A DNA stretch of 63,526 nucleotides, filler included, from Kipferlia bialata (Eukaryota), in NCBI GenBank assembly GCA_003568945.1. It is 3 parts of 3 records of this genome, joined end to end, with 100 filler letters (N's around TTAATTAATTAA, not from the genome) between each part and the next. Parts side by side here need not be neighbours in the genome. Positions count along the whole stretch, not along the records: positions 28,126 to 56,053 come from BDIP01000160.1; 2 more parts are not named here. One strand, 5' to 3'. A program made the position numbers and the translations under genes. The notes beneath the pieces were generated by a model. It did no database searches. It saw nothing but the letters and a program-made list of their open reading frames with translations, and was not told the origin of the DNA. Numbering within the stretch: position 1 is the stretch's first letter; each line of letters starts with the position of its first letter. Shown here in pieces: positions 1,696 through 63,526 of the stretch.

Positions 1696-1729
<34 letters not shown>

Positions 1730-3572: not shown

Positions 3573-3603
<31 letters not shown>

Positions 3604-4491: not shown

Positions 4492-4528
<37 letters not shown>

Positions 4529-7500: not shown

Positions 7501-9760
7501 TCAGAGTCTCCATCCAGCACAGTCATGGTGGGTGCCACCCCAGCTGCCAGTCTCTGCTGTCGGAGGGTGGCCTTGCGCCTCTCGACTGCAGCGGCCATCC
7601 TCTTCAGACTGGCCTGCGTTAGACATACTCGTTTCTCTTATTACTCATTGTATATAATTCAATAATGATAATTATCCCAATGATGCATATTGTGATGATA
7701 TAATATATATCTTTGCAATCATCTTGCTTATCAGGTTCCTTGGAGACTTGCCTGTCTTGCCTTCTCTTTCCGGTACTGGTTCCTCTCCTGTGTCAGCCTC
7801 CTCTGCTCCTCGGTGACGGTGGCGTTCAGCACAGTCTGACTCACCTTGTTATTAATAGTTGTATAGTGAAATAATGAATTCTAATTGTCGGCTGACTGAC
7901 CTTATTCATAATAGATGTATTGTACAATAATGATGCTAACTCTAATTATAATTGTCAGTAATTCCCAGGCACTTAGCACTGTCTGACTCACCTCTATCTC
8001 TGGATCAGGGGCATACTTGCACTCTACCTCAGCAACAGACAGACCGACCAGAGGAGGGGTGGCTGGGGCCTTAGCAGTGGCAGTAGTGGCACTATTAGGG
8101 TCTGAGAGGGTGGATGTTACTGCAGGGCTCTCTTGTGTAGATGTAGGGGCCATATCCACATCCCCCTCCTCCTCCACTGTCTCTCTCTGTGGCTGGGTGT
8201 TACGTGCACGCACATTCATCACAGCTGTCAGTGCGGGTGATGCACCATCAGGAGGGGGTACAGTGGGAGGGGGTAGAGGGTCAGGCTTCCGCATAGCTAG
8301 TATCAGTTCATCTTCCTCCTGTCTCTCTCTCTCTCTTTCCTTTGCTCTGGCCCGTACTCTGTCCTGGCCGTCCTAGAAGGTGAGATGTCTATAATACACC
8401 CACATATATGAATACTCACCCACAAATGTGTATGTATGAGTTTTCACTGTCGCAGAAGGGTATTTGATGCCACTCTAAAACATAATAAGTGAGTGTATGT
8501 ATCGTAGGTGAGGTGCCATTTACCTTATACACCCAGTTGGAACACTGAAGCAGCTGACAGACCCTGTCTATACAGAGGGTGGGTACAGATGAATCAGACG
8601 CTCCAGACGCTCCAGACGCTGTAGGAGGAGGGAACATGTCTGCTATGAACTCTGACTTGGCATCGTTCCTGTGGGTGTCGTCAGTCAGCTCCTGGGGGTT
8701 ATGAGTGGGTGATATTGAATATGAAGAAGCACACGTAATCATACTCTCCTCTCATGAGATATATACGCACTCACACACAATGAAGTGTAGTGTTAGGGAT
8801 ACTAATCCTTCTGCTCCTCACACCTGCAGACTCTCGTAGAGCTGTGCTATACGCATTAACACTCTATTAGCATATACATATACACATACACTATAAACCA
8901 AACAGTTAGCCCACCTGCAGTCTCTCGTAGAGCTGTGCCAGCCCTAGCTTGAGAGTGTGTCTCCTGTCCCTGGGGTATGTGGACAGACAGTCCCTCTTGC
9001 AGTACTGACACTTTGTGGGTATGGGAGGGGGGCCGGAGTGCTTGTACACCTGCTCAGTACTGGTGTTAGACAATATGATAGTGGCCACATTCTATAGTAT
9101 ATGGAGTGTACCACTAGTACATAAGTATAGTGGAAAGGTAGCACTCTGGCAATAGTACAGATGTATAGTATGGAGGCGTTACATGTCACTCACACAGCTC
9201 AATAGGGAGATGTAGTACTGTGTTAGGGTTAGATGCCCATACCTCTTGCCAGCTACCAGAGCTGTGAGGACTGCCTCGGATACTCCCTCACCCTTCCCAC
9301 CCTCTCCCTCACTCACATCCCAGTCAACCTCATCATCACTCTCCTCTGCACCCTTCTGTGCCATCTCCACATCCCCAGTCTCTCTCTCTCTCTCCTTCTC
9401 ACCCTCTCCTCCCACCTCCTCGACCTCAGTATCGCTCTCTGTGTCACTCTCTGTCTCTGAGTCTGAGAATGAGGGTAAGGGCGGCATGGGCTGCGACATG
9501 GTCCACTCCTTAGGCACACCCTTGGCATCCACTGAGGGTGACTGTATGGGGGTGTGGGTGGGTCTAGGTGGGGGTGGGTGCACGGCGTCGAGGAGTGACA
9601 TGACAGCAGTGGAGCAGAGGGAGTGGAACACACCCTGTATGGCTGGGCACACTATGGGGTTGGATGTGTCGAAGAGGACATGGGCCGTGGAGGTGATGTG
9701 GGAGGGGGTGGAGGCGGCAATGTCTCTAAGAGGCTTGGGATCCATACTGGGGTTGAGTTG
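577..9760 (-). CDS. Large multi-exon hypothetical protein, largely low-complexity/charged coiled-coil; 5' end unresolved
   Basis: Series of GT-AG bounded open exons (e.g. ~9243-9760, 8913-9050, 8524-8691, 7992-8373, 6337-7613, 5585-5844, 4655-5514, 2574-2893, 1344-1429) ending ...EPSKKKKKSKSHKKRSK* (TAG 577-579). One CxxC (KCQYCKRDC). No family recognised; could be more than one gene. Confidence 0.6.
1960..2110. other. Scaffold gap (N run) inside an intron
   Basis: Run of N flanked by (TA)n. Confidence 0.97.
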
Positions 9761-15976: not shown

Positions 15977-18900
15977 ATGCCTGATGAGATTATGGAGGGG
16001 GAGAGAGAGGTAGAGGGAGGGAGGGGGGTAGGTACACCTGTGAAGGGTAAGGGAGGGCCTGCAACAGAGGATGTGCCTGTGGAAGGTGTCAAGGCTGAGC
16101 AGGGGGGGGGAGAGGGAGAGAAGCCCAAGAAGAAGAGGAGGAGGAGGAAGGGGAAGAAGAAGAGGTCCAAGGGGAAGGGCGCCCCTGTGCCGCCATCCAT
16201 CCAGGAGGTGAGTGACCCTGTGTATATCTATGTGTGGCTGATAGTATCAGGTGGAGTAGGCAGTTCACAGACTCTGTGTCAGTGGATAGACTGTGTAGTA
16301 TCATAATATGTACCTATTCCCATTGCCCACCCCCTAGGTTGAGCAGGCTGCCCATAAGGAGGCCCTGTCGGCATACGGTAGCCCCATCAGGTAGGCTAGT
16401 ATGGCACTCACTCTCTCTTCTATAATCCGTTGCACTGCTGTGTCATTGTCAAGGTCATACCTCTGTATGTCTTCTCTTCCCATTCTTCTATTATTCTGGC
16501 CTGGTGTATGTAGAAGTATCGATAGTATGTAAGTGTATGTATCTATATTCCTATCCCCCCCCCCCCCCCCCCCCCCCCCCCACCCCCCCCCTTCCCCCCC
16601 CCCCTGGCCCCCCCCCCCCCCCCCCCCCCACACACACACACCACTTGTTCTCTGACAGACTACTCCGGGGCCTGTGACATACACTGCCATCCACTCCTCT
16701 GCCTTTACATCAGCCCCCTAGGGCATGTATCCCATATATATATAGACTCACATCACTATGTGCATTCACGGCCTTCCTGACCCTAGAGTCAGTGTCGCTA
16801 CTCCAAGACCAACACTGAGCTTGTGTATGAGATGCAACCAGACGGGGGCTGGGTGGCTACCCAGTGGGGGTTCGAAGCACACAAGGGAGGTATGGTGTAT
16901 ACTATAGGTGTTTATACGTACCATATGGTTAGTGAGGCATTATGCACTACGGTCACGGTGAGGGTGGTACCGACACGAGAGAGGTAGTGTCGACAATACA
17001 CATCACAGCGGCTGCCTGGCAAACAGTGTATTACTATACTCAAACTAAAGCTGCGTGTATGATGTTCACTTGGATATTGCTCCTTCCACCTCACCCCAGC
17101 CAGCACTGCCGCCCTTGGCCCAGAGGAGGGTGTGATGCATGTCAAGAACTTCAGACTGCTGCTAGACCCAGGTGTGTATACTATATGTATACTATATGTA
17201 TACTCTGTATGGTAGAGTATCAGAATCACTGGGTTCAGATACTCTCTCTGTATTTGTAGCTACCATGCCTCCACCGTGATAACGTGTAAAAACACCTACC
17301 CCAGACTCCCCGAGTGCAGGTGGTACGGACAGAGCCAGGATTCAGCTGCCCCCAGGTACAGTGCCTCTAGACTATAGTAGTTGTCTATCTTCCTCCCTCG
17401 ACCCCCCCCCACACATATATGTGTGTGCACCCCCGTATACACCCCCCCTCCCCCTTCTCCCCTTTAGGCAAGACTGTGGTCAATGTCCTGGCAGACTACT
17501 TGAGGTTCATGACTCAGCACTCGATGAAGGTATAGAGAGGTTTATGGGTGCTAGGTAGTATTGTGCTGTTTGTTTGAAGAGTATATACACCCTACCTATA
17601 TACATATATATATACACCCTGCCTAGATGGAAGTGGTGCTGCTTCTCGTGAGTATACATATATACATATCTATACACCATATGTATATACGTACCACCCT
17701 GATGCATCATACATATATATATACCACACTGATACTGACACCCCAGGTTCTCCACAGGGCCTACACTGTCTCCTCCTTCTCTGTATCGGATGTGATGTGG
17801 TGCATAGCCGTGCCTGCCAGGGTGAGGCTCAGCTGGTGTTCAATATGCCGTGTATATTGATGGGTTGGCAGTATCAGGCTGTGTGTCCCGTCACCATCAG
17901 TCTCTCTCCCCTACCGTATGTTTCAGTTCACCCCCCTGTGCTACATTACTCCCAGTCTCCTGCTGATACTGACACTGACCCCCAGTGGCTGTATCTATAT
18001 GTATACATACACTGACACTGACCCCCAGTGGCGTGGCAGGGCATGGACTCAGATGAGAGAGGCAGCCACAGAGGCAGGTGAGGCATATATGCATATGAGA
18101 TGGGAACGCAAGGGCACTCATTAATACACTGACACCAACCTCACTACTTATCCCTTGTTGGATCCGACACTTCCCCGAGTCCCGCAGCAGTATCAGTATA
18201 TATAGGTGATACTACTGACCCCAGGTCTCGTCTCGTCCCCTAACAGCCCCCGCCTGCACCTAGTAGCCGAGGCAGAAGCTGCTTTGGTATATATGGACAG
18301 CCTTGGGGTGCGCCAGTATCATTCACATATGTATATATATATGGGAGTGAGTGTGTATTGTCTATACGTATATCTATTACACTGTGTACTCACCTCAGAA
18401 CCCAGAGTTTCTGTCCAACGCGATGCAGAGGCTAGCTGAGGTGAATCTATGTGCAAGTCTTATAGTAAGCTATCGCAGGAGTATGCCCTAGTTCATAATG
18501 GCATTGTCTACAGCATCCTACGCTAGTATCCACACTCACATTACCGTCACACCCTTATGTACCAGACCCCCTTCCGCACCAGAGAGGGAGAGGTGACCAT
18601 GGTGGTGGATGCAGGTATCAGTATGGGTAGTACACATATATATAGTAGATATATAGTAGCTGTAGTACACACTCACATTGTGACCATGGTGGTGGATGCA
18701 GGTATCAGTATGGGTAGTATACAAATACATATATATAGTAGATCTATAGTAGATATAGTGGACACTCATAATGTGACCATGGTGGTGGATGCAGGTATGA
18801 GTCTCAGTATAGATAGTCTATATAGTTGATACATAGCAGATACTGAGACTGAGGCTGAGGCTGCGACTGCCTGTGACCATGGTGGTGGATCCAGGCGCAT

Positions 18901-20824
18901 TAATATGCCGCATATACACGTCTTGTACTGCATTTCATACCACTGCAGTGTGTGGGGTATGAGGGATATGACTGTTGTATATGACGGTGGAAGTCGGAGT
19001 ATTCGAGTTCAGTAACGAGATGCATACACTCATGATTATGAACTCATATGTGTACTGATATATCCTCTCTAACCCCCAGGTGCCACTTCTGTTGACATCA
19101 CCACATACCGGAAGGCAGGGCCAGGGACAGACGCACTCATGCACAGAGACAGGGTGGCCACGCTGGTACGAGTTGAGCTATTCTGCGTCCCCCTACCTAG
19201 CGAGTATGAGGTGTTATGCTCTATCGATATATTCCACTCTATTCTATGACCAATGCCAGGTCAGCAGTGCGTACGACGTCACCAGCGACATGACCCTTTC
19301 TGAGTGTGTAGACTTGGCATTCAGGGTATCAGCACCTGTATATATACACTGATATTTAACACCTATATATATTCACTGATATTTACATACAGACACTGAG
19401 TGTGTAGACATGGCATTCAGGGTATGTGTTCTCTCTCTAATATGTGTGTCTGGGTGAATGCATGTGCTTATCGATGGGTGTCACCATGTTGCATGTCTCA
19501 ACTGCGCATCCTACGATACATATTGAGCATGGTATGGTGTGTATCGGGTGTATGTGTAGTCTCCTGTTCTTTTCGGGGTATTAGATGTGTCTTAGTAAGA
19601 CGTCATACAATGGCCATCTTTGTATATCTGTTTGGTATCATCATTATACCTCTTCCGTCTGTACCCACGCTAGGACTGGGTGGTTGGCAAGGTGTCCCTG
19701 AGAGTGGTAGAGGAGATGGAAAGAGACAGACCAGGGTGAGTTATCTGTATACCCACTGGTGCACATCGTATATAGGTATATACGTATGAGATATCCAAAT
19801 ACGTATCAGTGCTCTCCGGTTGCAAATGGTCATGCCGGGTCTCAGGTCCCAGTAGGAATAATGTCTATGCATACGTGTGTCCCTATTCCCCAGGGCCCCA
19901 ACAACCTGTATCAGTGTCTTTTGTTGTTTCAAATATATTCATCCATATTACTATTCTATACAGGCTATTGTATTCATCTGTACTCCCTTTCTATACCCTT
20001 CATGACTCTCTCACCCCCCAGGGCCATGTACCACCTGTATGACCAGTGGAGGATGGAACGCCGCTTCGATGTGTGGAACGATAAGGTACAATAGAATTGT
20101 GTAGGGCCCTTTCCACGTACCAGTGACTGGTACGGTACCAGTCCCTCTAGATTAACCCAGATGCACTCATACACTGTATTGTATTCTATATATATATACA
20201 CATACAGAACTGTCCGTCATCCGTTGCTTACCTTCCATAACCACCCAGGATTACGACGATCACTACATCAGATTGTCCGGTTCGATGCTAAAGTGCATCG
20301 AGTCCCACCTGGCAGAGGAGGATGTGTTCGCTAGACTGGGGGTGGGTGGTTCTGTATACATCACACATGGGACCAATACACTTCATGGGCAGTCACATGG
20401 GTACTTATATATCATGACTGCCTCTGTCACCGGTGACATTGACATTCACATTCACATTGAAAATTGTTCTACCCTGGCCCTTCATACAGACACTGCCCCC
20501 GAGCCCTATAGTCTATAGGCTATAGACACTATCCATAACCGCTAATCAATATTCTGTACTATTCAGTATACACTGCCTGTAACATCTGTTGGCTGAGCAG
20601 GACAGTATTGGTATCAGTCTCAGACTTCAATTTCATAGGACTGATGACTGACGCTGCCTCTGACCCCTCTAGCCTATATACAATGTATACTATATATACA
20701 ATGTATACTATACACTGTCACTTACCCCTCTAGCCTATATACTATATATACTATATATACAATGTGTACTATACACTGTCCCTGACCCCTCTAGCCTATA
20801 TACTATGTATTATGTATTACATAT

Positions 20825-20855
<31 letters not shown>

Positions 20856-21893
20856 ACATATATATAACATATATACCATACACTGCCTCTGACCCCTCTA
20901 GGCCGAGCAGGACGGGGAAGAGGATGACCTGGTCCTGTGCCTCAAGGACAGAGAGAGAATGTTCGACCCTACAGTGGAGAGGATACTAGGCAGGGCTGAA
21001 GAGAGTATTCATACACAATCCAATGCAAATCCAGTACTATCCTTGGACGGATGTATCCAGGTGTCTGACCCTAGCTCTGATCAGAAAGGAGATGCATAAC
21101 CAGAGCCATCGACACAGGTACACATATCTATGTGTATATGGGGTTACATATATCTATGTGTATATAGGGTTACATATATCTTTGTGTATATAGGGTTACA
21201 TATATCTATGTGTATATAGGGTTATGGGTGCCTTGCACAGAGAGAGAGATATCAATGCTTGCGTCCTTGGGCTACACTATATATATATACCTTTACACTA
21301 AACACTGCTAGAGTAGTCAGTACTATTGAAAATATCCTGTCGAATCTTCATTGATCGATGATCCAGACACACACTCAGTGCTGGCTACACTAACATTACT
21401 AACAACAGTGTTGGGTCCATTCTCCTAATCGGAGGATTCGCCCAATTCCCGTACCTGAAACATAGGTAGTGTGTGCATATATATTCACAGTATTCCATAT
21501 ATATACTATATATAATATCACACATTCAATCTGTACCAAGGCTGGTGTCATACTGTTTTAGTACCAATGTAGTCTAACTACCCCCCTCGCCTCCTCTGAC
21601 TGTTAGGGTGCAGGCTGAGCTGGGACAGGATGTCAGGGTGGTGTGGCCAAAGAGCCCAGGTATCAGCATCAGTATCTATATATGTATAGTGTATTCATAT
21701 ATCATATGTATAGTATATATATGTGTAGAGTTACGGAACCCTCTCGATGTGTGGTACAACCCCCATCTCACTACTGTATCTTTACTTATATATTAATCTA
21801 CATACATACTAAAACCTACACTCACTCCCAGCCACGGTTGTCATGGGGGGTGCGTGTCAGTATGCCCTGACAAGGGAGGGGCCCTGGGTATAG
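15977..21893 (+). CDS. HSPA12-like atypical Hsp70 / actin-like ATPase domain protein with a basic N-terminal extension
   Basis: Spliced motifs: YSKTNTELVY...WGFEA; KTVVNVLADYLRFM; WCIAVPA.W....MREAA..AGL; LVAEAEAA; MVVDAGATSVDITTY; RMFDPTVERIL; ILLIGGFAQFPYL...VVWPKSPATVVMGGACQYAL. This matches the HSPA12-type nucleotide-binding domain layout. Confidence 0.8.
18593..18895 (+). repeat. Four copies of exon 3' end plus donor (gtgaccatggtggtggatgcag|gt) in an Hsp70 intron
   Basis: Copies at ~18593 (live), ~18680, ~18773 and ~18873 (degenerate, donor gc). Confidence 0.9.
21118..21225 (+). repeat. Intronic tandem repeat, ~26-nt unit x4 (tacatatatctatgtgtatatagggt)
   Basis: Directly visible head-to-tail copies. 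Confidence 0.9.
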
Positions 21894-22625
21894 AGGGGTG
21901 GTCATGTATGTGTGTGTGTGTGCGTGTGTAAGAATAGCGGAATGATACCGACCTTCTATTACTGTGTATAGACTAGATAGGGGCCTAGGTTTGACCTAGA
22001 AGACACGTTCAAATACCTCAACTGGCAGTTGCAGCTACCCACAAGTCATCATGAGATGCTGATACAGGGTATGATCATGAACCACTCTCCCTCCTCCTAT
22101 CTCTATTCATAAAGGCACCTCACAGTAGTCTGAATACCATCATGGTATTACCATGTCTCTGCATACAAGTATCAGTATCTGAGACAACTATTCTACAAGC
22201 TATCATTGACTTCGGATACTCCTGTCACTGACAGTTTGAGTGGTGCCAGTGTAAATCATACCAGAACCCCACACGCCACACTGGGTGGAGGGTTCCTGCT
22301 GACGTTAAAGAATCAAAACTATGTATTCTTTATATATTCATATTATTATAGTACTATATATTCAATAAGTATGTATATATTCATTATACATTGAAGATAG
22401 TGGAGGAGCCCAGGATGGGTGAACGGTAGCCGCTGAGTCAGCGGCGCTGACTGTTCCAATGGCATTAACATTGCACATAGTAGTAGACTGGACTATAAGG
22501 AGGCAGCCACGAGCACACATAAATTCGAGGCCTATGTCTACAAGTATAACCATTGCTTGAGGGAAGAGACCACACGACTACTCAGTGAGGACTCCTGATT
22601 CAGAGTCAGACTAGCAAAACTTTAG

Positions 22626-24892
22626 TCAGGACCTGAAGGTGGAACTACACACTGAATATACTACACATAACTTATGTGACATAAGAAAGAATAAGGGGCA
22701 AGAGTCTCGATAGCTTTGCCAAAAATCGCGAGGCTCTCAACAATACTTTTCTCAGTCTAATATACTTGGAGGGGATACACCTCTTGCAGAGTCCACGCAC
22801 ATAGAGAGAGAAAAAGGGACGCCCGTTGAGCGGAATGAGCGGACTGATGCCCAGGTTGGTACTACCCTGGACTGATACAGTGTATTGTGTGGCGCAGTGG
22901 GTAATATAGTGGGTAATATAGTGGGTAGTATAGCGACCATGTCTACCCGAAACGGTGGCACACATTATCCTGTGGTAACCTTGTGCCATGATATATAGTA
23001 TATATATAGAGAGAGAGTAAGATATTGCTACTCTTAAGGTAGACCTCTTATGTGGATTTGTGGACAGTATGAGTCCACCCCCCCCCCCCCCCCCCAATCA
23101 GCCCCGAGCATTGCATTGTAGGTTGCCGGTTTAACACACGCCTAGGTCTCGAGTATATCCACCAACCTCAGCTTCCCTTGGTCGATGGTGGGGGCCCTCT
23201 CACCCTGGGGTCAGTATCAGTATATTAGCAGAGAGCACATAGCTGTGTGTGCAAGCAGAGTGCTATGACTCCCTATGGCATCACCACATATCCGTCTCGT
23301 CTCTGGCTATTCCTTGGTGTGTGTATATACACTATACCTTGGTGTGTGTGAACTGGGCCTGTGTCTCTGACTGGGGGAATGGGAAAGGCACCCCGGGCAT
23401 CCTGGTGTTGCAGATGGGCACGTTGGACTTGGACCGCATGCCCTTGTCGGCGGAGGGGTCTCTGGCCACGGCACCCCTGGGGTCACGGTCAGGCACAGCG
23501 AGATAGTGTATCAATCTATGATACTGATACTAATACTGATACCAATACTGATACACGGACACGGTCAGGGGAACCATCTACAACCGAGATAATGTACTTC
23601 CACGAGTGGTGTCTATATACATTATCATACCAACCCAGGCCAACGGCGTCCTACAATAAATAATACAGTAACATATATAACATATATATATGATTCATCT
23701 GTATGTACCTGTCCACATACTGCCGCTGCATCTCAGACTGGGTGTCCCCCCGGCCATCAAAGATGATGTGGGTCTTGCGGAGCTCTGTCAGTGAGTCTGG
23801 AATTGATGTGTAATAAGGAATTCAACACCGTAGATGATATGGTGAAGAAATTGTGAATAGTGAAGCCCTCCTGGGAAATGTATATGTACAAATATATGCA
23901 CACATATAACAGTACACATACCAGTCATCATATCTCCGCTGGACTGGATTGCACCTGCTCTCTCTGCCTGGGGGTCAGAGGAGATATGCCTAGACACTAG
24001 GGCCTAGAGTATGCCGTATAACACAGTATATGGTCATACTGCCAGTGATACCTTAGAGTAGGTCCTGTAGTCCTGCTGCATGACACTCCTCTCTAGGGAG
24101 GAGGACGTGTTGCCTATTCTGGCGGTGAGGGGGGGGGGTAGGGGCCGAGGAGGGGAATAATAGGGACGATATAGTACCAGCAACAGTATGAGGATGCAAA
24201 TACACTCTCATACATATGCATTGTCTATACCTGACCGCGCTCTCGCCCCTTCTGGATGAGTGGTCCTGAGGCCCGTCCAACTGTGAGAAGTCGCCTAGGC
24301 ATAAGACACACATATAGAGGAGGATGGGGCTAGGAAACAGAGGGAGAGGCCCTATGATCCCTTCATAGATGTAGAATACTACAGATGTATCAAGTGCCTG
24401 GCTTGTAGGTCACAGCGTATGAACTGCTCCCAAATGCACTCCTGCTGTCCCCAACCAGCACATGGCTCCGCTGCAGGGCCTGGGGGTCACAATACACACA
24501 CGGTCCTAACCCAGCACACATGCTTCACACCTGTTAGATATATACCATTAGATATATACAATTTGATATTGAAATAATGCCTTTCGGCTTGTCAACCGCT
24601 TAGGTGCAGAACAATTCACCAACACACATATACATATCAGTACATGCACTACATAGACCCTTACGTACCGTTGCGTCCACTGGCACTGGTCTCTCTGCCC
24701 CATTCAGACACTGAAAGTCCTGGCAGTGAGGGGCATATACATATATGTATATATATGTGTGTATGTATGGGCGATGGTATGATGTCATAGCGAAGGGACA
24801 TTACAGACAGATATATCAGGCCAACGGATCCATATTGGTGGTCATCCATAACCAATGCATACATACACATATAGATGAATCTAGGAATACTT

Positions 24893-24945
<53 letters not shown>

Positions 24946-25501
24946 CATATACACCCATGTGCCCCACCTGCTGGAAGACTGACGTCTGGAGGGGCTGCCC
25001 TTGGGTGCCCTGACTCAAGTCAAAGTGGGACTGCCGGAGCTGGGCCTTGACCTGGGGTGAGGGGCACACGCCAATACACATGCTGCCCTTGGCCTTGTGC
25101 CGTACCTCTGCTGCTGCCTCTCCTGCCCCTCCCACGGGTATGTCCCTCTGCACATAGGTGTCCCTGGAATCAGAATGGTATACTCACAACAACTGACTGA
25201 ATGTAATGGTTCTCATACTTATAGGGTCTGCGGGTAACCACTCCATTTCCATGTGTACACATTGCATGCATACCTGTATGACGTGGAGGTGGTGTTGTCG
25301 GAGTCTAGGAAGTGGATGTTGCTCCCCTTGCTGGCATACTTAGCCTTCAGATACTCACTGAGGATCAGTATAGCAGGCATATATAAACATACACATTTTT
25401 AAACTGATACTCAATGAGGTCAGAAGAAGGACAAGGGGGTGTGAAAGGCTAGATGGGAACCGATGTCCAAGGCAAGAATTAGCTATCAATCTCACAGACA
25501 T
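22626..25501 (-). CDS. Probable flagellar microtubule inner protein with repeated Mn-type motifs (SAXO5/TEX45-like)
   Basis: Phase-compatible exons give repeats: KGSNIHFLDSDNTTSTSYRDTY; LRQSHFDLSQG..LQTSVFQQDF; LQRSHVLVGD..FGSSSYAVTY; ESAVRIGN..LERSVMQQDY; LRKTHIIFDGRGDTQSEMQRQY; RSKSNVPICN..PQSETQAQF. Start and last exons uncertain. Confidence 0.65.
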
Positions 25502-25581
25502 ATGTATGAATACAAACATACTCTCTCAGCCAACAAAACTAGAATATACGCACTGCCAGCTCAACACTCTCACAGAAGACA

Positions 25582-27932
25582 TGGAATACAGTATTGGAGT
25601 TACATCGGATTATATGAGTATCAGGGGGGTAGATACATATGATCTGACAGAGTAGTTAGTCTGACCCTATCATAGCTCAATTCACTCCAACCACTGCCAC
25701 TCATACAAATACACAAATACAAACTGCAGCAGCATCTGTGATGTATGTGGGACGTACGCCTTTCGATTGACTGACTGGAGAGCAATCACAAAGAGTGAAT
25801 ATTGCTCCTACACCCTTAGGACACGAATCGAAAAAACTGGATTCATCATTGTTGCCATACAGTGGACCACTGACAGTGGTCACTCTAACCAAGGCACTCC
25901 AACTCCATCCTGACTACACTCTCCGCATATCTCCCTTGGGAGTATTTCAGACAATGGGAGTGATGGATGTGTGGCCTCTTAGCCTGTTAGACCCTGAGTA
26001 CTACACAGAGTACATGTTCATAGGTATGTGTATATAGTTATGCAGCCGTTACGGTTGACTGGCCAACTATACACAGAGGGGCTAGTGGTTAGCCCTTGGC
26101 GCACTGTCATTACTGGGGCCATCCTTTGGATGTGTAGTTATATCTTGGACTGGTGTCAGTGTGACATTCAGAGTCTGAATCAGAGTCTATTTCATGCTCT
26201 CTTACACACCGATTCCCTATTTCTATACTTCTTCGAGACTCGGTTATGTACCTACGGAGACTCTCTGTGTGTTGGCCGGATGTATTGGGTATGTACCTCA
26301 CCCCAGGCTGCTCTGCCGTTGCCGGGTGTCTGTATCTGATGGGTGTGGTCGTGCTTATGGTGGCTGGACACAGGGGGCAGCTCTCAATCACCACTCCCCT
26401 GGTTAAGTGAGTGCCATATGCTAGTGATCTATGTGTCTGGTGTCAGTTATCCGTGTGCATGTCATTTCAGCCGGTCTCTATGCCATATCCCTATGGGACT
26501 GGCTCGGTATCAAGTGGTTCTGTATATGTGTAGGGTTGTGGAGTAAAAGTGAATATGTCATTCCTACGCCACCAGACAACCCTGCCCCCCCCCCTCCCCC
26601 CCCCTCCCCTCACCCCAGGATATCCTTCATTCTGCTCACCCTCTCCTCATTCTCCATGGTGCTGGACCACGTACTGGCTATCGTGTACCCTAGCGCAAAC
26701 ATTAAGCCCGACTGGGTGTCGAAATACTCGGTACGCAGACACATGCGCGTATTCACACTCTTGTTCCTCTGACCCATGAGTTGATCAGCACCATTTCTGA
26801 ATGATCTCTACACATCCACGGTATCTATACTCACCCGTACACCCCCTCTCCCCTTATGCATCAGCTCTATGTAGATCCTGCAGCAGAGGGAGTCTCCATC
26901 CTGCAGTATGTGGGGTTGTTGTATGTATACCAGCACGTCCTGAGGGTAAGTGGCCCCTGTTCTCTTCTCTCGTCTTTCGCTCTCTCCCTCTCCCCCTCCC
27001 TCTGTCTCTCCCCCCCAGGGTGTGTGGAGTGTCAGGGCCAGCAGGATATTCCAGAGGGTCATCATCGTGCTCTGCATACTGCTGGTGAGGTTTAGGATGT
27101 ATATGTATATATACATATATGTATATAATTGCACATAGCACTCATTTGTGGTAGTGTTGGCTATGCAGGTGGTACTTTATTGAAGGTGACCTGTTTTACA
27201 GTGAACGTTACCCCCTCACCCAATCTTCTAACCCCAGACATTGGCTATTGTAGTGGTCTTTGGGGGACAGATTGTGTTGCTCAATCTCATTATCAAGGTA
27301 TTATTATTGTTGGTGTCCCTTACAGTGACGATCACCTTAGCGGTATCCTACCCCTCTCTTTGGCCTTGATACTGAGTATATACATTCTCGACTATTCTCA
27401 TTGAGAGGGGATGCAGGCTGGAGACCCAAAGGCGTGGGAGTACTTTGACTACTGGGACTCCCTCAACGGTATGGTACTGATACTGATACCGGTGCAGTGA
27501 CACATGATGTGATACAACATCACCAGATATATAGTATGAGAGTGGACGTCACTGGCTGTATAGACCCATGTATGCCGTGTCCCTGACCCCAGGGTACCGC
27601 CTGCCCCTCTATGCCGTGGTGGTGGGGTGCGTGGCATCCAACATCATGATACTCACAGCCATCCAGCACATGTGAGTCCAGCTCGATACTTGTGTATATG
27701 TATATGAAGACTCATAGACTCATTAGACTTTTACTGATACATCTGAGTGTTGTGAGTGCTCACAAGACAGTGTATTGGAGGATGGAACGCTGGACAGATA
27801 CATGTCAGTGTATCCGACTATATATATATATGTAAATAGTTGTGTATGTATCTGTTCTGGTGTGTCCTTACCCACCAGGTCCAACAGATCCATCCAGAGC
27901 GGGGGTGGCAACGTCAATCCATCAGAGGCCAG
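25582..27932 (+). CDS. Multi-pass membrane protein of unknown function (3' end lost at contig end)
   Basis: Several hydrophobic exons (TVITGAILWMCSYIL; GCLYLMGVVVLMVA; ISFILLTLSSFSMVLDHVLAIVY; IFQRVIIVLCILL; TLAIVVVFGGQIVLLNLII) bounded by GT/ccccag. Start codon tentative. Confidence 0.5.
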
Positions 27933-28025
27933 GTGCGGCTGTTTGGTGTTATGAGCGTGTCTTTTCGGCAATGGGGATTACCCCCCCCTCCCCCCCCCCC
28001 CCCCCCCCCCTCCACCCCCCCCTCT

Positions 28026-28125
28026 NNNNNNNNNNNNNNNNNNNNNNNNNNNNNNNNNNNNNNNNNNNNTTAATTAATTAANNNNNNNNNNNNNNNNNNN
28101 NNNNNNNNNNNNNNNNNNNNNNNNN
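28026..28125. other. Artificial contig linker N..TTAATTAATTAA..N
   Basis: Six-frame stop spacer (28070-28081) between N runs. Confidence 0.95.
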
Positions 28126-28851: not shown

Positions 28852-29588
28852 GGTCACTCGAAGCAACAGGGACTCAAAAGAGATATATCCAGTGGTGGTC
28901 GTTTCTCCCCCTGTTCACTCCCTCACTGACGTAGCGGGATCACAACTTAACACAACCTTTAAACCAGCGGTTTAATCTTCCACTTAAGTTTGGTCAAAAA
29001 CCAAGAAAAGGGTCTGGAAATTGAGATTTTGGGCTTGATGCTCGCCATAGAGCATCCACCTAGTAGGTACATACACACCCGCACACGTGCTGCGCCAGTT
29101 GAGGATGCAGATGCGTGTTCCGGCTCCACTGCCACCCATCCCACCTGCTCGGTTTGGTGCCACCACTGAGCCTGTGCATGGGGACCCAGAGGCGCCGCCC
29201 AAGGTACCCTCTATCACTGTATGAGTCTCTCTGTACATAGAGGCCATATATACATGTTGTGGTGTATAACCATAGGGTATTTTCGTGTGTTTAGTGAGGA
29301 TAATGTAGTGGGGAGATGCAGTATAGTAGTATCAATGCCACTTGTGATTGTATTGCTGAGGTCACGTTATGTATGTCTCTCTCCCATTCTATAGTGGCTG
29401 TGTGAGGTTGATGTATGGATGGTTAGACAGCACGTTAATATTGGTAGGAACCCCCCCCCCCCCCCCCCCCCCCCCCACCCCCCCCCCCCCCCCCCCCCCC
29501 TCCCCCCCCCCCCCCCCTCCTCACCTTAGGGTGACATGAAGGGTGCCTTCTCCCCCCCCCTCCCCCCCTCTCCCCTCCCTCACCTTAG

Positions 29589-29826
29589 GGTGATATGAAG
29601 GGTGCCTTCTTCCACCTGAGGGGTGCAGTCAGGGTCACCCAGGCCATGGTCAGAGAGACAATACAGCTAATCAAGAGGAGGTATACATATACATAAACTA
29701 TAATACATGTACTACACTATACTATATACACTATACATATAATATAGTGAATTTGGTTATATATAGTCAGGGTCACACAGGCCATGGTCAGAGAGACCAT
29801 CCAGCTCATCAAGAGGAGGTATGCCA

Positions 29827-29863
<37 letters not shown>

Positions 29864-32745
29864 ATACTCACCCTAGATGTCCAGGCGTTGAGTGCCATGT
29901 GGCCCCCTATGATCTCTCTCTCTCTTATTCTGTATCTGCCTCTCAATCGTAGGTGTCCAGGTGTTGAGTGCCTTGTTGCCCCCCATGATCTCTCTCTCTC
30001 TCTCTCTCTCTCTTTTGTCATCCTTGACCCTCTTAATCGAAGGTGTCCCGGTGTTGAGTGCCTTGTTGCCCCCTATGATCCTCTCTCTCTCTATATATAT
30101 CTCTCCCTCTCTTAGATATTCTCACTCCAGGTGCCCAGGTGTTGAGTGCCTAGTTGCCCCCTATGAGGCCGATGCCCAGCTGTGCTACCTGGCACAGACA
30201 GGCCAGGTGGACTTTGTGTTGACAGAGGTACATGCATTCCTACACATCATATCTATTTGTACTCACGGAGGTATGTATATGAGCCTGTTGCTGATTCAGT
30301 AAAGATACTTGACCCGTTTCTCCCTCTCTCTACCCCTTCTACCTATCAGGACAGTGACCTCCTTGTCTTTGGCTGTGAGAAGGTCATGTTCAAGTTCAAC
30401 AAGGCAAACGGTACGAATCCATCACGCTTACAGAGTCAATCTGTTTTTTGTCGTATCCAAAGTAGCCATGTCTCACCGTTAGGAACAGGTGACTTTCTGA
30501 TCCGGGACCTTGCTTCCCAACAGGCAGGGTGCTTCTCCGGCATGTCACCGGACCAGTTCAGGTGTGACTATGCCACCAACTCCATATCGGATAATAGTAT
30601 ATATCTATAATGTATATTGTGGCTCCGCCTACTATAGTACTGATGGCAGGGACACGTGCATCCTGAGTGGGTGTGACTATGCCACCAACTGTATATATAT
30701 ACTGTATGTACCTACATTGTATGTCATATATATGCTCAATGCTACACCCCAGAGACACGTGCATCCTCAGTGGGTGTGACTATGCCACCAACATACAGGG
30801 CATATTATATATTGACATAGTATATATATATATATATTTGTTAGGTAATGCTTCAGTACTACTAACCTCTAGAGACACCTGCATCCTGAGTGGGTGTGAC
30901 TATGCCACCAACATACAGGGCATAGGCCTCAAGACAGCAGCCAAGATGGTCAGGGAGAGCAAGGACGCGCTGAGGTACGGTGTGGTTCTACACGATACAT
31001 ATCAGTATTGTATTCATATATGCATATTGTTATTGTTCCTCTCACCCCAGGGTCATTCAGCAGCTGAGGGGCACTGCAAAGTTCGGGAGTAAGGTACGTA
31101 CAGGTGTATATATATAGCGACGCTCACTCTCTCCAATGAGTAGTATGTAGAGATTCCGTTCAGGTTTTCTTTTCCCCCCCGAGAGACTCTCTTGGCTATT
31201 ACTATCTAGTAACTAAGAGTATTTACTCACCCTTCAGATACCCGAGGGCTATGCATCACTGGTGGAGAGGGCACAGCTGTCATTCAGGTACATGCCATAT
31301 ATGATATATATATATTTACATATTTATAAATGCTGTTCTGTTCCGACATACTGCCCATTAGTCCGTACTGTGTATGAGTACACCTTGTGAATACCACATA
31401 TTATATAGTGTGGAGTACTCTGTCTCTTATTCTATACCTATCCCACCCTCAGGCACCAGACTGTGTATGACAGTGACAGCAGGGGCCCCTATTATAATTG
31501 TATATGATGCTACAGTATATAGTATTCTGCCGTGTGCAAATATGCTAATCCTTAGGCACCAGACTGTGTATGACAGTGACAGCAGAGGCCAGGTGCCCAT
31601 GAATGAGATCAAACCGGACACAGGAGGTATCCGCTCCATATATTGTATCACGTTATAACAACACAGGAGGTATCATGTATAGGCTATTTCTGCACGTGCT
31701 TATATCCATTAGCTGTTCTCATTCCAGCCCGTATCCAAGCCCTGGTCTCCGAGGTCGGGTGCTACTTCCTGGGGCCTGTCTATGACAATGAGGATGCAGA
31801 GAAGGTTAGTTTCATGTGTGTTATATCTAATTTGATATATATATGGTATACCTGTGGCAGTTTAGTCTATGGTAACGAGGATGCAGAGAAGGTGAGGCCA
31901 CACTATATACTGTAATATATGGTTGAGTAAGTGCTTGTTCTGTTCCCTTACCCCAGGTGGCCTGTGGTGAGTATGACGCCACCACCCACCAGCCTGTGGA
32001 TGATAGTGTACGCACAGTGGCAAAGGTACATATGTGAGATCTCTTACTGTGTTATTCTTCTGTGTATCACCTGTCCTCACCGCTCCATCTGATACCAGTC
32101 CAAGCCCCGTCCCACTGCTGCAGATATATATATACATATATATAGTATATATAGATATGACTGTATTACTAGGCCTAGTATATATCATATTGATTCCAGG
32201 CCAAGCCCAGACCCACTGCTGCAGAGAGGGCAGCCAGAAAGAAGAAGGAGGTATGGCTATGTGTTCATAACACTTATAGATAATGAGTGGTGCGTGCACG
32301 AGGTAGTGTACCATCCTCTCTGCAATACTGTCTCATACCAGGTCATGGAGGCCAAGGAGGAGAGAGATTCAAAGACGTGTGTTTCCCTGTGTATATAAGT
32401 ATTCGTGTGCCTTATTCTTAGTAGTCTCATACCAGGCCCTATATATATATATATATATATATATATTACAATAGATAATACCAGGCCAAGGAGGCCAAGG
32501 AGGAGAGAGAGAGAGATGCCCAGCAGAAGAGACAGAGGCTGCAGCTGGGGGGCGGGGTTGGACTGATGCACACTCTCACCAAGGTGTGTACATCTCCTAT
32601 CTCTTTGATCATCTCTCTCTCTCTCTCTGATACCCACACTCATATGTGTATATATGCATTTACTTCTTATGCCCACACTCACTCAGACTGAGGCCACGGC
32701 TAGACAGAGGGCCAGAGAGGTGGAGCAGGAGGTAGGGACATTCTA

Positions 32746-32779
<34 letters not shown>

Positions 32780-35321
32780 GCTCTCTCTAGACAGAGGGCC
32801 AGAGAGGTGGAGCAGGAGGTATGCACCTCTCTCTTATTTTCTCTCTCTCTCTTTCTCTCTCTATCCCTGTATGGTGCTTATCATAGGTCCATGACCTCAT
32901 TGACTCTGAGTCTGAGAGCAGTGACCTGGAGAGCCTGGTCAGCAAGAGACACAGGGGGAAGAGGGAGAGAGAGAGACGGAGCCAGGGTCTGGGACAGGGC
33001 CGGGTAGAGGGGTACAGGGCACCAGCAAGTGGGAGCTATACAACCCAACGCTCCACCCAGGGTGCAACCCAGGGGTCCCAGGGCTCATATGGATCATACA
33101 GAAGGAGGGCGGGTGCCAACACAACCACCTACTCCTCCGCAGCCTCTCTATCCACTGAGGATAGTATCTTTGACGCCACAAGTGCAGGCGCCGGGGGATC
33201 TATACCAGTCCCATCTCGGCATATGGGTGCCATGCACGACGCTGAGGCAGGGAGAGAGAGAGAGAGAGAGGTAGTGGAACAGAAGGTGGAGCCAGTGAGG
33301 GAGAGGCTGTCCAGTTCTGATGCCAACCCAGTGGCAAGGTTCGTACACTTGTATTTTACTTCATACTTCAATTCACCTATTCATATACTGATATTAGGTT
33401 CCAAGGTTCGTATCCTTCTGTTCTACCTTACTTACAACTCCATCACCCTTTCATATATACTGATAGGTAGGTTCCCCCGCGCTGCCCCACTCAGGAGCTC
33501 TCCATCAGACGTCTCTACCTCTGTACGTTCAGACGTTCAGACGTTCAGACCTGCTGATGTCTCTGTACCGCGTAGTGTTGCAGAGGAGTCTAGGGAGTCG
33601 GGGGAGTCCTCACCTAGGAGAGCGTCGCCTGTCAACCCAGACAGACTGGCGGCACTCACGGTATGTATAGTATTCATACTATAGTATGTGCCTCTATGCT
33701 ATGAGAGTCAGAGATAGTAGGATTTATAGAAAGTGTGTGAATGTACCACTCACTTCAGGGCCTTACAGTACGTGTTATTGTAGTATGTGTATATATATAG
33801 TAATGTGTGAATGTACCACTCACCCCAGGCTCTTATGGCTAGGGATGACAGAAACAGGGAGGAGAGGAGACGGGCCTCTGAGGCTGCTGCTGCACTGCAG
33901 ACACCCTCCATAGTGGAGACACTCAGGTATGTATTTGTATAGTAGTGTATCTTCTCAGCGTCTAGGATGCTATGACCTCTCTCTCTATCTCTCTCCTTCT
34001 TTATCGTGTATATCTTACTGTCAGAGATACCCTAGCCAATAGGCCTGTCATCACCCCCTCCCCTGCCCCCTCCCTAGACCATGACGATGGGTCCATCACA
34101 TCCCCATCCAGCGGGGGGAAGGCAGACTTCATAGAGGTATATACTATATACACATACATACATATATTCAGGTACTTCAGTGTATGTAGTATGTATATCA
34201 AGTATACTAACCACCAGCGTCTCTCCAGACAGCAGAGGCAGAGGGGCAAGAGAGACAGGAGGGACAGTGTCGGCATGGAGAGGGGGGGCATGGAGAGCTT
34301 CATGCTAGACCCTGAGGACACGCCGGCCAAGACTATCCCTGACCACACCAGACCATCCAAGACCACGGGTGTCAAGAAGGGTAGAGTGAACAGGGAGAGA
34401 GAGGTGGAGGAGGAGGTGATGGACTTCACCAGTGATGGGGAGAGTGATGACCTCACAGCTAGCATACAGCGGAGGCGGATCGAGGCAACACCACTCTCTA
34501 GGTAACCGGAGGATGTATTGAGAATAACAGCATATTTCTGCACTGGTTTGTATACTATGGTCTATATACACTTACTCCAGGTCCCCTGCCTTTGATGGTA
34601 GGACTGCCAGGGGCAAGATGCGTAGGAGTGATGAGCTTCGGAAGAGGAGGGACGAGGAGAGGGAGAGGGAGAGGGAGAGGGAGAGAGAAAGGGAGAGAGA
34701 GAGACAGCAGGAGGCAGCGACCCTTTCCCGCAAGAGGGAGAGAGGGCCACGGTCTCTCCCCTCTCAGAACAACACCCAGGGTTCCCACAGCTCCTACAGC
34801 TCCTATCCTAGAGAGTCTCAGACCCGCCCCCTCTCCTGGGAGTCTGATCATTCCCAGCACACAGCATCTGTCGCTAAGAGGCGCCCTCCCTCCAATACAA
34901 GTGCTGATCTTAACCCGTTTCAAACGGCATCCAAGACTAGTAGGGCAGTCAGTCTTACCCAGTATCCCTCTACTAACGGGACTAGGGGGGCTAGCGGGAC
35001 TAGCGGGGCTAGCGGGAGCAGGCAGGCCGCTCTACTTGAGTCAGGTTAGTATATGTATTATTATTATATATATCTATACATATGGATTAAGTACCACTCT
35101 CACCCTAGGCTCTGTCCCAGATGGCTACAAGAAGAAGGTGAGACGGGCTGCACTGGCTGGGGTGCTGGAGAAGGTAACTCTTCTGCACCACACACTATAT
35201 AGATGTGTGATTTGCATAGACTCATATACCCCTCTCACTGCAGGCCAGGGATAACTCTGTACGTAGACGCAGTGCCCAGGTCCTAGACCTTGACAACCTC
35301 AAGTTCAACGGAGGCAGCTAG
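29589..35321 (+). CDS. EXO1: Exonuclease 1 (XPG/Rad2 family); XPG-N segment not visible
   Basis: CPGVECLVAPYEADAQLCYL...VLTEDSDLLVFGC (XPG-I); CILSGCDYATNIQGIGLKTAAK (H3TH); FRHQTVYD (EXO1-typical). Long disordered C-terminus ending LDLDNLKFNGGS* (TAG 35319-35321). Confidence 0.92.
29766..30165 (+). repeat. Nested exon-edge copies in an EXO1 intron (1 donor-side, 3 acceptor-side)
   Basis: Copy of upstream exon end at 29766-29820. Copies of ag|(g)tg[tc]cc.gg.gttgagtgcc..gt.gccccc at ~29876, ~29951, ~30041, and the live one at ~30129. Confidence 0.9.
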
Positions 35322-36330: not shown

Positions 36331-39300
36331 GTCTCGTACCAATCTGCGTATCTACGTGCTGGCCATGATGGGTCTCTACTACCGGAAGAAGAAGAAGAGA
36401 TCAGTGGCACTCTCAGAGTTCCAGCAGGCATGCGAGCTCCTGAGACACACCAAGGTACGGGTGTATGTACACATTTCTAGATGACTGAGTGCTTCCATAT
36501 ATGTCTGAATGATACACAATCCTCCCCCCCCCCCAACCTTTCTCTCATTATGCTTCTACTGTTGTTTCTATCCCTATCACTCACTCCAGGAGTTTGAGGG
36601 TGCTGGTCCAGTGTACCTGGCCACTGGGTACCTGTACTCACTGGGAGGGGGACTGGATGCCCCGCAGAAGGTATATACACTAGTGTTAGATGGGCAGAGT
36701 TAGTCACCACCTTGACTCTTCCTAGTTGACCCCAGGCCTTCCGCATGTCCCTCCGCGGACTTCAGTGGTATATACTCTCTGTCTGTAAGATGCTATGTAT
36801 ATTGTATATAGCCTCCTTTAACTCCAGGCCTTCCGCATGTCCCTCCGCGGACTGCAGTGGGCCCTTGCCCAGATACACCTGCCTGTCTCTGACCCAGACT
36901 CTGTGTCAGAGCTGGTCAAGGAGAGCGCAATCATAGGTACACACCTCCCCCCCCCCCTCCCCCGCCCCCTTCTCTCTGTGTGTCTTGCTTGTACTCTAGA
37001 CTCATTCACTCCCAGGTCACTACAATGTTGCCATTTCACTCAAGAAGGGCTCAGGATCGAAGCTCGGCGTCAAGGCAGGCAGAGACAAGGAGGTGGGTGT
37101 CTTCTTATCAATATCTGTGTGGGTCTCACCCCCAGCATAATCCATAATCACGTTCTGTTCTATCTCTGCTCTCCCTCACTCCCCCCCCATCTCTCTCTGC
37201 CTTACCCCCAGCAGGATGACCCCTACTACCACATCAGCCGTGCCCTCTCTCTCCTTCTCTCCATGTATATACAGATATCCTTGTATATGTGAATATATAT
37301 ATATCTGTCTCACCTTCAGCAGGATGACCCCTACTACCACATCAGCCGGGCCCTGTCTCTTGTGGATCTGCTACAGCTGGGTGACCACGGCATAGCAACT
37401 AGGGTGCAGAGGGCATTCAGATCATTCGATGCTAGGTACGTTTATGCCGGTGTACTTCTAGTATATATAGGAAAGTATATAGTATACATTTGTTGTAGAG
37501 TCTGAATATGTATACATTCATATGTGTTAGTGTCTCACTCCAGGGAGCGTGCCAAGGACATGCGTGCCAGGGGTGAGTCTGGAAGGCCACACCCTGCATC
37601 AGCTGGGCCAGCAACTAGGTATAGTATAGTGAATAGTATATGTTCCCATCTGTCTATACACTCCATATACCTTCTTACCCCTAGGGCCCCCAGCTTGCCC
37701 ACTGCAATATTGTTAGTTTTGTGTGTTCATTATTACCCTCTCCCTATATGACCCCTCACCCCCAGGGCCACCAGCGTCCCCCACCTCCCCAGGCTATCCG
37801 GCACCACCAAGAGGGGTCAGGATGGGACAGCACGGGGCACTATCCCCAGACCCCCCACCGATGCCCCGCCCCATGCCGCCACAGCCTACAAGCCAAGCAG
37901 TGCGCCCAGTGGGTCATCCTTCACATCCTCCTACCACCTCGCTGCCACTACTAGACCTCCCCAGGGGCATATCCAGATGGATGACACCACTGGGTTCAGG
38001 AGCGTGCCCAGTGGCAACATGACAATCAGGTACAGTGCCATATACTAAAAATATATATAATTATTGTAGTTTAGTATATAATGGTGCTATAATATGCTAA
38101 CTCCAGGCCCCCCGATGAGAATGAGCTCCCTGCATCTAGGTTCGAGAGGGACTCCTACGACGATGGGGTGGACATCCCATCCCCTAGCTCGTTCATCCCA
38201 AGGCCGCCTAGTAAGGTAAGATCATATATATACTATCCGAATGGTATAGAACAGTGGGTTATGTGCGTGTTGTTGCTGTTACTGATGCCCAGGGTGCCGG
38301 TGTCGGCTCAAGGGGAGGCTTTGACTTCACTGCTCCGAGACCACCCATGCCTGGCCCACCTAGGGTATGTATATACTTTACTCTCCACCTCTCTGTCTCT
38401 CTCTATATATATGTATGTGTATGTATGTTTATATATATGTATTTACTGACTCCTAGGGCAGACGCGAGAGACCTAGGGAGAGGCCTGGCAGCAGGGGTCG
38501 CAGACTGGTGGCCAGTGGGGGAGAGGATGAGTCGTACCTCCATGTGCACCCCCCATCCTCCCACAGCCAGAGGAGACAGACACCGCAGACAGGGGCCATC
38601 GCAACTGCTAGACAGGTATGTGCACTCTCTCAATACTGTATACATATTTGTATATATATGTGTATATATATGGAGAGAGAGAGAGAGACAGACGCCGCAG
38701 ACAGGGGCCATCGCAACTGCTAGACAGGTATGTGTCAAGCATACATCATACTGTTAGACTCTATAGTGTTGACTCTTCACTTCTTACATCCAGAGACAGA
38801 TGCGTGCCCTGGCCCCTGCCCCCCCTACCTCGGCACCCATTGGGGCTACAAAGTCTCGCAGACTCCGTGGAACCAAGGGTACACAGCATCACATATCATC
38901 TAGTATATATGTGTGCATGGATTCAGTGACAATGTGTTGCTAACCCCCAGCCACCAAGGGCGAGAGGTCCGTTGGCATCACGTCCTTGGGCACCGAGTCT
39001 CTGCAGCTGAGGCACTTTGCTGGGTCGGGGAAGAGCAGGGACGACGGCGTGGCACCCCCTCCCTCTGACACAGAGAGGAAGACTGCCCTCAGACTCATCC
39101 TGGCAGCCAAGCAGGTATATCCACTCGTCGCGTTGTTTTTGCGCTCTCTCTCTCTCTGTGTGTGTATGTGTGTGTGTATCTCTGGACCTTTCTCTCCCTC
39201 TCACTCCCTAGGCCGTAACTGAGGAGAGGGCTGCCACCAAGATTGAGGGTGCAGTGAGGGGCTTCCTGGTCAGAAGGAGGATCAGGAATGAAGCCATCAG

Positions 39301-53549: not shown

Positions 53550-53775
53550 TGTGATATTTCTGACCGCTATTGACAGCTGGTTAACTACTGACGACCACTA
53601 TTGACAGCTGGTGACAAAAGAGGTGACGTGTGTAGGAACCTAGGAACCAATGTATATTGAACTTATGTGCCAATTTCAGCTTAAAAAGCATACCCCAGAT
53701 TTCATTGAGGACAACGACCCAGTAGCAATGAATATGACTAATATGTGAAATATAGATGCAAATAGATACCTTCAC

Positions 53776-55960: not shown

Positions 55961-56053
55961 CTGACGTCAGCGGGAAGTGGAGAGAGGGAAGACCGAACAG
56001 AGATGGGAGAGAATTAGAGTCCACTGACAGCAATGAGAGAGTGTCAAATAGTA

Positions 56054-56153
56054 NNNNNNNNNNNNNNNNNNNNNNNNNNNNNNNNNNNNNNNNNNNNTTA
56101 ATTAATTAANNNNNNNNNNNNNNNNNNNNNNNNNNNNNNNNNNNNNNNNNNNN
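56054..56153. other. Artificial contig linker N..TTAATTAATTAA..N
   Basis: Spacer at 56098-56109 between N runs. Confidence 0.95.
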
Positions 56154-63281: not shown

Positions 63282-63526
63282 CTGGGATGAGACACATTGT
63301 CACATATCATATATCACTGTGTACAGATGGAACATACACCATGTGGCCTCTCTACAATAATCCATACATTCACACATCAGTATCGACGAAGTTTAAAAGT
63401 TGGAGGGGTGTACGGGAAACAAACTGATATAGTGAGAATATTAAATAATACACTGCGTATTATGTACATAAGTACATCATGTGTCAGAATATAAAGAGTG
63501 AATATACAGAGGAGGCGCGGGGGGGG

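Follow-up and report, generated by a model that had tools for sequence, protein, structure and literature searches.

The intron at 29681-30130, which measures 450 nt by sequence alignment within the window (the whole 63.5-kb stretch of Kipferlia bialata DNA that was analysed), interrupts a gene for an EXO1-like XPG-Rad2 nuclease and contains copies of the ends of both flanking exons. The identity of the gene is given by the XPG-I catalytic acidic motif and by the nearest structures, all five PDB matches being Exonuclease 1; the live catalytic exon downstream of the intron (30131..30227, plus strand), which encodes the XPG-I region, matches Pfam XPG_I (PF00867) with an E value of 3.6e-9 and 37.3 bits against a cut-off of 24.9. 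The live exon upstream (29589..29680, plus strand) shows no differences from its piece of the RNA contig and ends at the donor used in RNA. This contig, of 2511 nt, comes from X2, a presumed RNA run, and shows 13 GT-AG joints, all of them in agreement with the gene model. It joins 29680 to 30131 and thus skips the 450 nt, it has no differences from the live exons and it carries no copy variant; this is a single contig from a single sample, in which decay of mis-spliced RNA could mask the use of inner sites. The copies of this intron are covered by no X2 contig, contigs being blind to rare forms. The RNA contig includes 334 nt from the 5' part of EXO1 that are absent from 29520-29588.

The intron opens and closes with intron-type sequence, and between its ends lies an ordered array on the plus strand: an AT-rich spacer, a copy of the upstream exon's end with a donor, a short core that ends in a good acceptor, and the start of the next exon in three copies. 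The live donor (score 6.0) and the 84-nt spacer occupy 29681..29764 and are followed by the 54-nt exon-end copy at 29765..29818, which differs from the live exon by four synonymous and no replacement changes and continues into GTATGC, a donor with a score of 6.8. The core is a mini-intron at 29819..29876 with a CT tract, a branch-point-like CTCAC 7 nt from its TAG and an acceptor score of 8.2; it is 58 nt long, and seven of 165 modelled introns are as short or shorter. The three exon-start copies, each of 36 nt, all end at the same base, are separated by CT-rich spacers of 40-54 nt, and are 83-92% identical to the live exon start. Copy 1 (29877..29912) has five silent changes and one replacement (L to H), copy 2 (29953..29988) has two silent changes and one replacement (Y to H), and copy 3 (30043..30078) has three silent changes. 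Alignment scores of the copies in the intron are 50-92 against a threshold of 28, and the copied parts amount to 36 of 97 nt of the next exon and 54 of 92 nt of the upstream exon. Similarity to the 58-nt core is seen for the three acceptor-side spacers (p 0.03-0.04) but not for the donor-side spacer (p 0.98). The cassette is probably a donor copy that faces an acceptor copy by juxtaposition.

The preliminary description, which had reported an exon-intron-exon cassette of synonymous copies embedded in this intron, is thus borne out by the alignment, apart from the length of the mini-intron, which had been put at about 59 nt. It had also proposed that three good-looking 3' sites must be skipped to produce the mRNA. 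The skipping itself is upheld, as the RNA contig uses the outer pair and every inner donor-acceptor pairing leads to an early stop, and the joint from 29680 to 30131 supplies the junction usage by which it had proposed to check this. Scoring of all four acceptors leaves a single strong decoy: the first copy scores like a real site at 8.2, the second is marginal at 3.4 and the third, with AAG, scores -0.7, compared with 10.4 for the live acceptor. Among the 165 modelled acceptors, 78, 8 and 1, respectively, score as low as these or lower.

The remainder of the gene contains further copies. In the preceding intron, an acceptor together with a 23-nt copy of the start of the upstream exon lies at 29519..29552 (plus strand), has the same acceptor score as the live one (8.1), and belongs to a 59-nt tandem unit beside a poly-C run. 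A second EXO1 intron (30562..30872, plus strand, 311 nt) holds three copies of the next exon (30562-30580, 30651-30689 and 30753-30804) and is skipped whole in RNA; its RNA-supported donor arises from 19 nt that repeat, without a difference, an interior stretch of the following exon. Four further introns within 31288..32886 (plus strand) hold one copy each (31453-31487, 31865-31891, 32100-32124 and 32787-32818), with an RNA joint for the first three. An RNA joint is therefore available for five of the six copy-bearing EXO1 introns, and in all five the outer sites are joined and the copies skipped. X2 also contains a second EXO1-like transcript (2157 nt, depth 15.6) with six differences over 30157-30228, a paralogue. 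At the DNA level, contigs of X1, which may be the source of the window itself, contain 29539-29818 and 30023-30686 without differences and so confirm both outer adjacencies, from the live donor to the donor copy and from the third copy to the live exon, whereas 29819-30022, between skipped CT repeats, is bridged by no listed X1 piece. The window has N gaps (28026-28125 and 56054-56153) with a TTAATTAATTAA linker as well as long poly-C/poly-G runs (e.g., 29451-29517) where genes break off, and some of these runs may be assembly joins.

The feature is window-wide, and nothing special has been shown for EXO1 itself. For the 63.5 kb, to which all counts are restricted, gene models were produced with a small gene finder and then curated by hand to skip copies; models outside EXO1 are predictions, and the regions left without confident models are mainly 20100-22300, parts of 22300-28000, 53500-56050 and 61250-63500. 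After two of 167 modelled introns had been left out because of frame problems, 37 of the remaining 165 (approximately a fifth) were found to hold 54 copies of flanking exon ends, and 37 is a lower bound within the models, as the detector misses short or low-complexity copies visible by eye (32342, 33399 and 33760). In the control, three of 3300 alignments (0.09%) reached the score threshold of 28. Forty-eight of the 54 copies, including all four in 29681-30130, are anchored no more than 3 nt from an exon boundary. Donor copies only occur in 14 introns, acceptor copies only in 15, and both in 5 (of 165; Fisher p 0.06), and the idea of one embedded cassette peculiar to EXO1 is not supported. Copies are 15-66 nt long (median 35% of the parent exon), mostly with no second splice site; they recur at a period of 63-147 nt (median 101.5, n=46), and the spacers span 40-119 nt, none being shorter than 40 nt (n=37). 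The copies are found in 33 of the 48 introns longer than 150 nt, and their frequency differs strongly between genes (12/16, 5/10, 6/20, 2/12, 6/50 and 2/31 introns; p 7e-7). Self-alignment reveals similar pairs throughout the window, which has a GC content of 48.4%.

The density is highest in a low-complexity gene at 577-9745 (minus strand), where 12 of 16 introns have copies and four have donor as well as acceptor copies. The genes at 36365-46660 and 47029-52339, which by their motifs appear to be IQ-repeat-like and dipeptidyl-peptidase-IV-like, have few copies, in 6 of 50 and 2 of 31 introns, respectively. The intron 7991-7845 (minus strand) takes its GT from a 24-nt duplicate of the next exon's beginning, with which it opens, ends with AAG, and is a candidate for intron birth by AG|GT duplication; the predicted intron 7751-7614 (minus strand) is GC-AG, the sole non-GT donor among the 167 modelled introns. 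An acceptor copy at 62317-62288 (minus strand) is followed 30 nt on by an in-frame donor (score 3.6) and may be a real duplicated mini-exon. The array at 18593-18894 has three donor copies 87-100 nt apart, the first two with well-matched intron parts, and is a young self-duplication. Dispersed repeats of 21-32 nt recur every 500-680 nt in an unmodelled gene at 54388-55940 and are perhaps protein repeats.

Donors in the window read AG|GTR, and 57 of the 69 predicted introns used to build the splice matrices have a branch-point-like YTNAY that lies 7-9 nt from the acceptor. Judged by these matrices, the signals of the copies are largely intact: AG is kept in all 25 acceptor copies and GT in 17 of 22 donor copies, and 21 of 25 acceptors and 16 of 22 donors score within the range of real sites, compared with 2.4% and 6.5% of background dinucleotides, respectively. 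The copy sites are not significantly weaker than the live sites (p 0.11 and 0.12), so that site strength does not explain the choice of the outer sites, and weaker signals were rejected as a general cause of skipping. In sequence the signals of the copies differ from the live ones, with 6.6 of 12 positions identical compared with 4.9 for random acceptors. A usable donor lies near 9 of 25 acceptor copies, in frame in six cases; none was found for the three exon-start copies of 29681-30130 (best scores -0.2 to -1.3), and none of the 22 donor copies has a usable acceptor. Copies 2 and 3 of 29681-30130 start with GT and are predicted to regenerate a donor with a score of 4.2, whereas copy 1 would regenerate none. 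Such a GT start is found in 8 of 25 acceptor copies, and recursive splicing as a general rule was rejected on this count; GT is also the first dinucleotide of 6 of the 20 exons that have an acceptor copy, compared with 20 of 145 others (p 0.07).

The copies differ from the live exons in a manner typical of coding sequence. Divergence is 48/201 (0.239) at four-fold, 38/288 (0.132) at two-fold and 40/868 (0.046) at zero-fold sites, whereas in a neutral dead copy zero-fold sites are predicted to diverge at least half as much as four-fold sites, and thus the pattern is unexpected for neutral decay. Third positions have 82 differences compared with a neutral ceiling of 43.7, and the unique changes comprise 79 silent and 57 replacement changes (p 1.5e-5, under a null of a neutral copy and a live exon that is free at silent sites); one gapped copy was left out of the site classes and of these counts. 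For the nuclease part of EXO1 the unique changes are 14 silent and 2 replacement (p 1.4e-4). When four copy sets were dropped (three possible real mini-exons and the gapped copy), the excess persisted: four-fold and zero-fold divergence were 9/35 (0.257) and 3/162 (0.019) in EXO1 and 35/145 and 30/622 in the other genes. Replacement divergence tracks the protein, being low where it is conserved and higher where it is of low complexity (pN 0.025 for EXO1, 0.007 for the IQ-repeat gene and 0.085-0.089 for two low-complexity proteins), and silent divergence does so much less (pS 0.17-0.30 in seven of nine genes). Changes confined to a single copy number 34, of which 15 are silent compared with 25% expected (p 0.012), and no difference from the live exon is seen in 11 of 53 copies. 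Base-composition bias was rejected as the source of the silent and third-position excess, and a drift of the copies towards A/T was rejected, as 39 silent differences are towards G/C in the copy and 30 in the opposite direction. Judged from the sequences, the exon parts and splice signals look as if they had been under selection for most of the time since their split from the live sequence.

The intron parts behave differently from the exon parts. Flanks are similar at p<0.05 in 5 of 37 cases, whereas simulated copies with 9-24% point change are recognized in 39-40 of 40. The residual similarity (median p 0.25 compared with 0.70 for unrelated introns) fits about 40% substitution plus 12% indels in simulations, which is above the divergence at silent sites. 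The 20 nt at the truncated ends of the copies are rich in TA (0.155 compared with 0.068, p 3e-7), which fits slippage or microhomology at such tracts, or their later expansion.

With modest confidence, we favour the view that the copies are scars of duplications of about 100 bp over exon-intron boundaries, with sequence from diverged working alleles, which are tolerated because splicing picks the sites of intact exons. Recombination or repair between homologues would slip back by about one intron length, often at a TA or CT tract, so that the boundary would be present twice. One of the two copies would stem from, or later be overwritten by, an allele that was coding until recently, which would account for differences that are mostly silent and for consensus-like splice signals. 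As long as the duplication was polymorphic, either half could pair with the normal chromosome, and the copy and its splice site could be exchanged with functional sequence. Survival would be limited to arrangements whose outer sites win, these being chosen by recognition across the intact exon. Such recognition is likely to be the rule, given that inner sites often match the outer ones in strength and lie nearer; in 29681-30130 the strong inner donor and acceptor may in addition cancel each other if the 58-nt core is spliced first, so that the live acceptor would compete with one weak and one poor acceptor. Metamonads have been reported to lack canonical end joining and to rely on homologous recombination, as far as the account in PMC8516963 goes, and a framework for exon versus intron definition is outlined in PMC3488318.

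We infer the allelic source of the copies from their pattern of divergence, and it has its price. It requires a silent diversity of 20-25% among alleles, a postulated value, and, as flank divergence exceeds silent divergence, it needs introns that change faster than silent sites. X2 shows one haplotype of EXO1 at 80% likeness, X1 shows single-contig depth over the exons at 92%, motif scans of metagenome contigs yielded no loci and no second strain, and protein searches with long exons gave no matches. Random breakpoints do not predict the 40-nt floor of the spacers (n=37), and some units, e.g., 18593-18842, are plain recent tandem repeats that need no second allele. A bolder version, which we regard as doubtful, is that the shadow copies in a fifth of the introns are a working, protein-selected system in which they are swapped with or spliced into live exons so frequently that coding selection continues to act on them; introns would then archive alternative alleles, and exons would be read whole while perfect inner sites were ignored in introns of about 80 nt.

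The main rival explanation is plain tandem self-duplication with neutral decay, very fast turnover of intron microsatellites and, from time to time, conversion by the live exon of the same chromosome. The anchoring of 48 of the 54 copies at boundaries, the recent tandem repeats with matching intron parts at 18593-18842, 20660-20810 and 29494-29610, the residual flank similarity and the shared end base of the three acceptor copies are all in its favour. We nevertheless consider it unlikely, since its zero-fold divergence should be at least half the four-fold value, far from 0.046 against 0.239 (and 0.019 against 0.257 in the RNA-checked EXO1), the third-position excess is left unexplained by base composition, and replacement rates should be independent of the protein but vary with it. 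The coding-type divergence and the intact signals would instead be expected if the copies were still used, whether as minor mini-exons, in intermediate steps of nested or recursive splicing, or as RNA- or DNA-level templates for sequence that enters the protein, with selection keeping the codons; the six in-frame cases among the nine acceptor copies with a usable donor nearby and the donor that copies 2 and 3 would regenerate also point in this direction. This appears less likely still than the bolder version above, because the RNA contig has no copy variant, the three exon-start copies of 29681-30130 have no usable donor and the donor copies no usable acceptor, inner pairings lead to stops, a GT start is confined to 8 of 25 acceptor copies, and splicing in steps gives no reason for amino acids to be conserved.

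Two further explanations are far less probable than those above. The insertion of a junction-spanning fragment of a paralogous gene as a single cassette would agree with the normal length and intact signals of the 58-nt core and with the existence of the paralogue transcript. That transcript cannot be aligned over 30131-30156 even at 80% likeness, while the copies and the live exon start share 83-92% identity, and the paralogue was rejected as their source for this reason; moreover, the acceptor-side spacers resemble the core, and 29 introns hold one kind of anchored copy only, so that we regard the insertion as very improbable. To an assembly artefact, in which alleles of a heterozygous or mixed culture were laid in tandem, we give the least credence of all. 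The period of about 100 nt, the allele-like silent differences, the N gaps and poly-C joins and the unbridged 29819-30022 could be so explained, but separate X1 contigs cross both outer adjacencies without a difference, their depths (365 for the contig from donor to donor copy and 506 for that from third copy to live exon) are near the 450-500 of the flanks, and other listed X1 pieces span further copies together with live exons.

Tandem exon duplication with mutually exclusive exons likewise places exon-like copies with apparent coding constraint beside a parent exon. The copies here are 15-66 nt long, with a median of 35% of the parent exon, and mostly have no second site; in 29681-30130 parts of exons (36/97 and 54/92 nt) were copied, and inner use leads to stops. 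In the duplicated-site constructs of Reed and Maniatis (1986), a site beside a truncated piece of an exon reportedly lost to the site of the full exon; those constructs were artificial and were assayed in human extracts, whereas natural introns are concerned here.

The closest published analogues are boundary-spanning minisatellites with silent pseudo splice sites, described for intron 7 of human F7 and also for LMNB2, PDGF, CBS and 6-16 (PMC1557585). As in F7, the unit spans the exon-intron boundary (48 of 54 copies), the splice site is reiterated in the intron, and the outermost site is used, in the five of six EXO1 introns for which contigs, blind to rare forms, show a joint. The F7 pseudo-sites, as described in that source, are identical in sequence, on the donor side only and known from few genes, whereas the copies analysed here are on both sides and in 37 of 165 introns; their exon parts differ mostly at silent sites, and their intron parts can barely be aligned, so that units are not alike over their whole length. 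The Rogers model, in which an intron is gained when an AG|GT site is duplicated in tandem (PMC3265369), shares the short intragenic duplication, the splicing out of the extra copy and the unchanged protein, but the duplicated piece is described there as purely exonic, while most units here span an existing boundary and lengthen an existing intron. In 29681-30130 the two splice sites do not both stem from the exon, and at 7991-7968 (minus strand) and 30562-30580 only the donor side does. Spliceosomal twin introns and nested introns of fungi (PMC12403724, PMC6616335) also contain an inner intron-like unit with donor, branch point and acceptor that could leave first. In stwintrons, as characterized in these sources, a splice element of the outer intron is split by the inner one, which makes two steps obligatory, whereas here nothing interrupts the outer donor (6.0) or acceptor (10.4), both of which are intact.

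A fused branch point and acceptor has been described in diplomonads and parabasalids (PMC6679479), and the genome paper of an intron-rich fornicate with similar GC content and intron density (PMC5874029) has no occurrence of "duplicat" in its main text. The literature searched, comprising titles and the beginnings of abstracts, with few subscription journals and no supplements, contained single-gene analogues only, and none at genome scale or with coding-type divergence. On this limited evidence, the phenomenon is known in part from the human boundary-spanning minisatellites, and what appears to be new is its scale and the coding-type divergence.

One practical consequence is that the copies mislead gene finders; the initial gene model spliced them in as mini-exons. 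Every 60 kb offers dozens of natural contests between splice sites of equal strength, in introns short enough for pairing across the intron to be expected, so that exon versus intron definition becomes directly measurable genome-wide. If the allelic origin is true, traces of lost alleles and of imprecise recombination are preserved in a fifth of the introns of a single genome, and introns lengthen stepwise, by about 100 nt at a time, along a route that was not found described in the literature searched.
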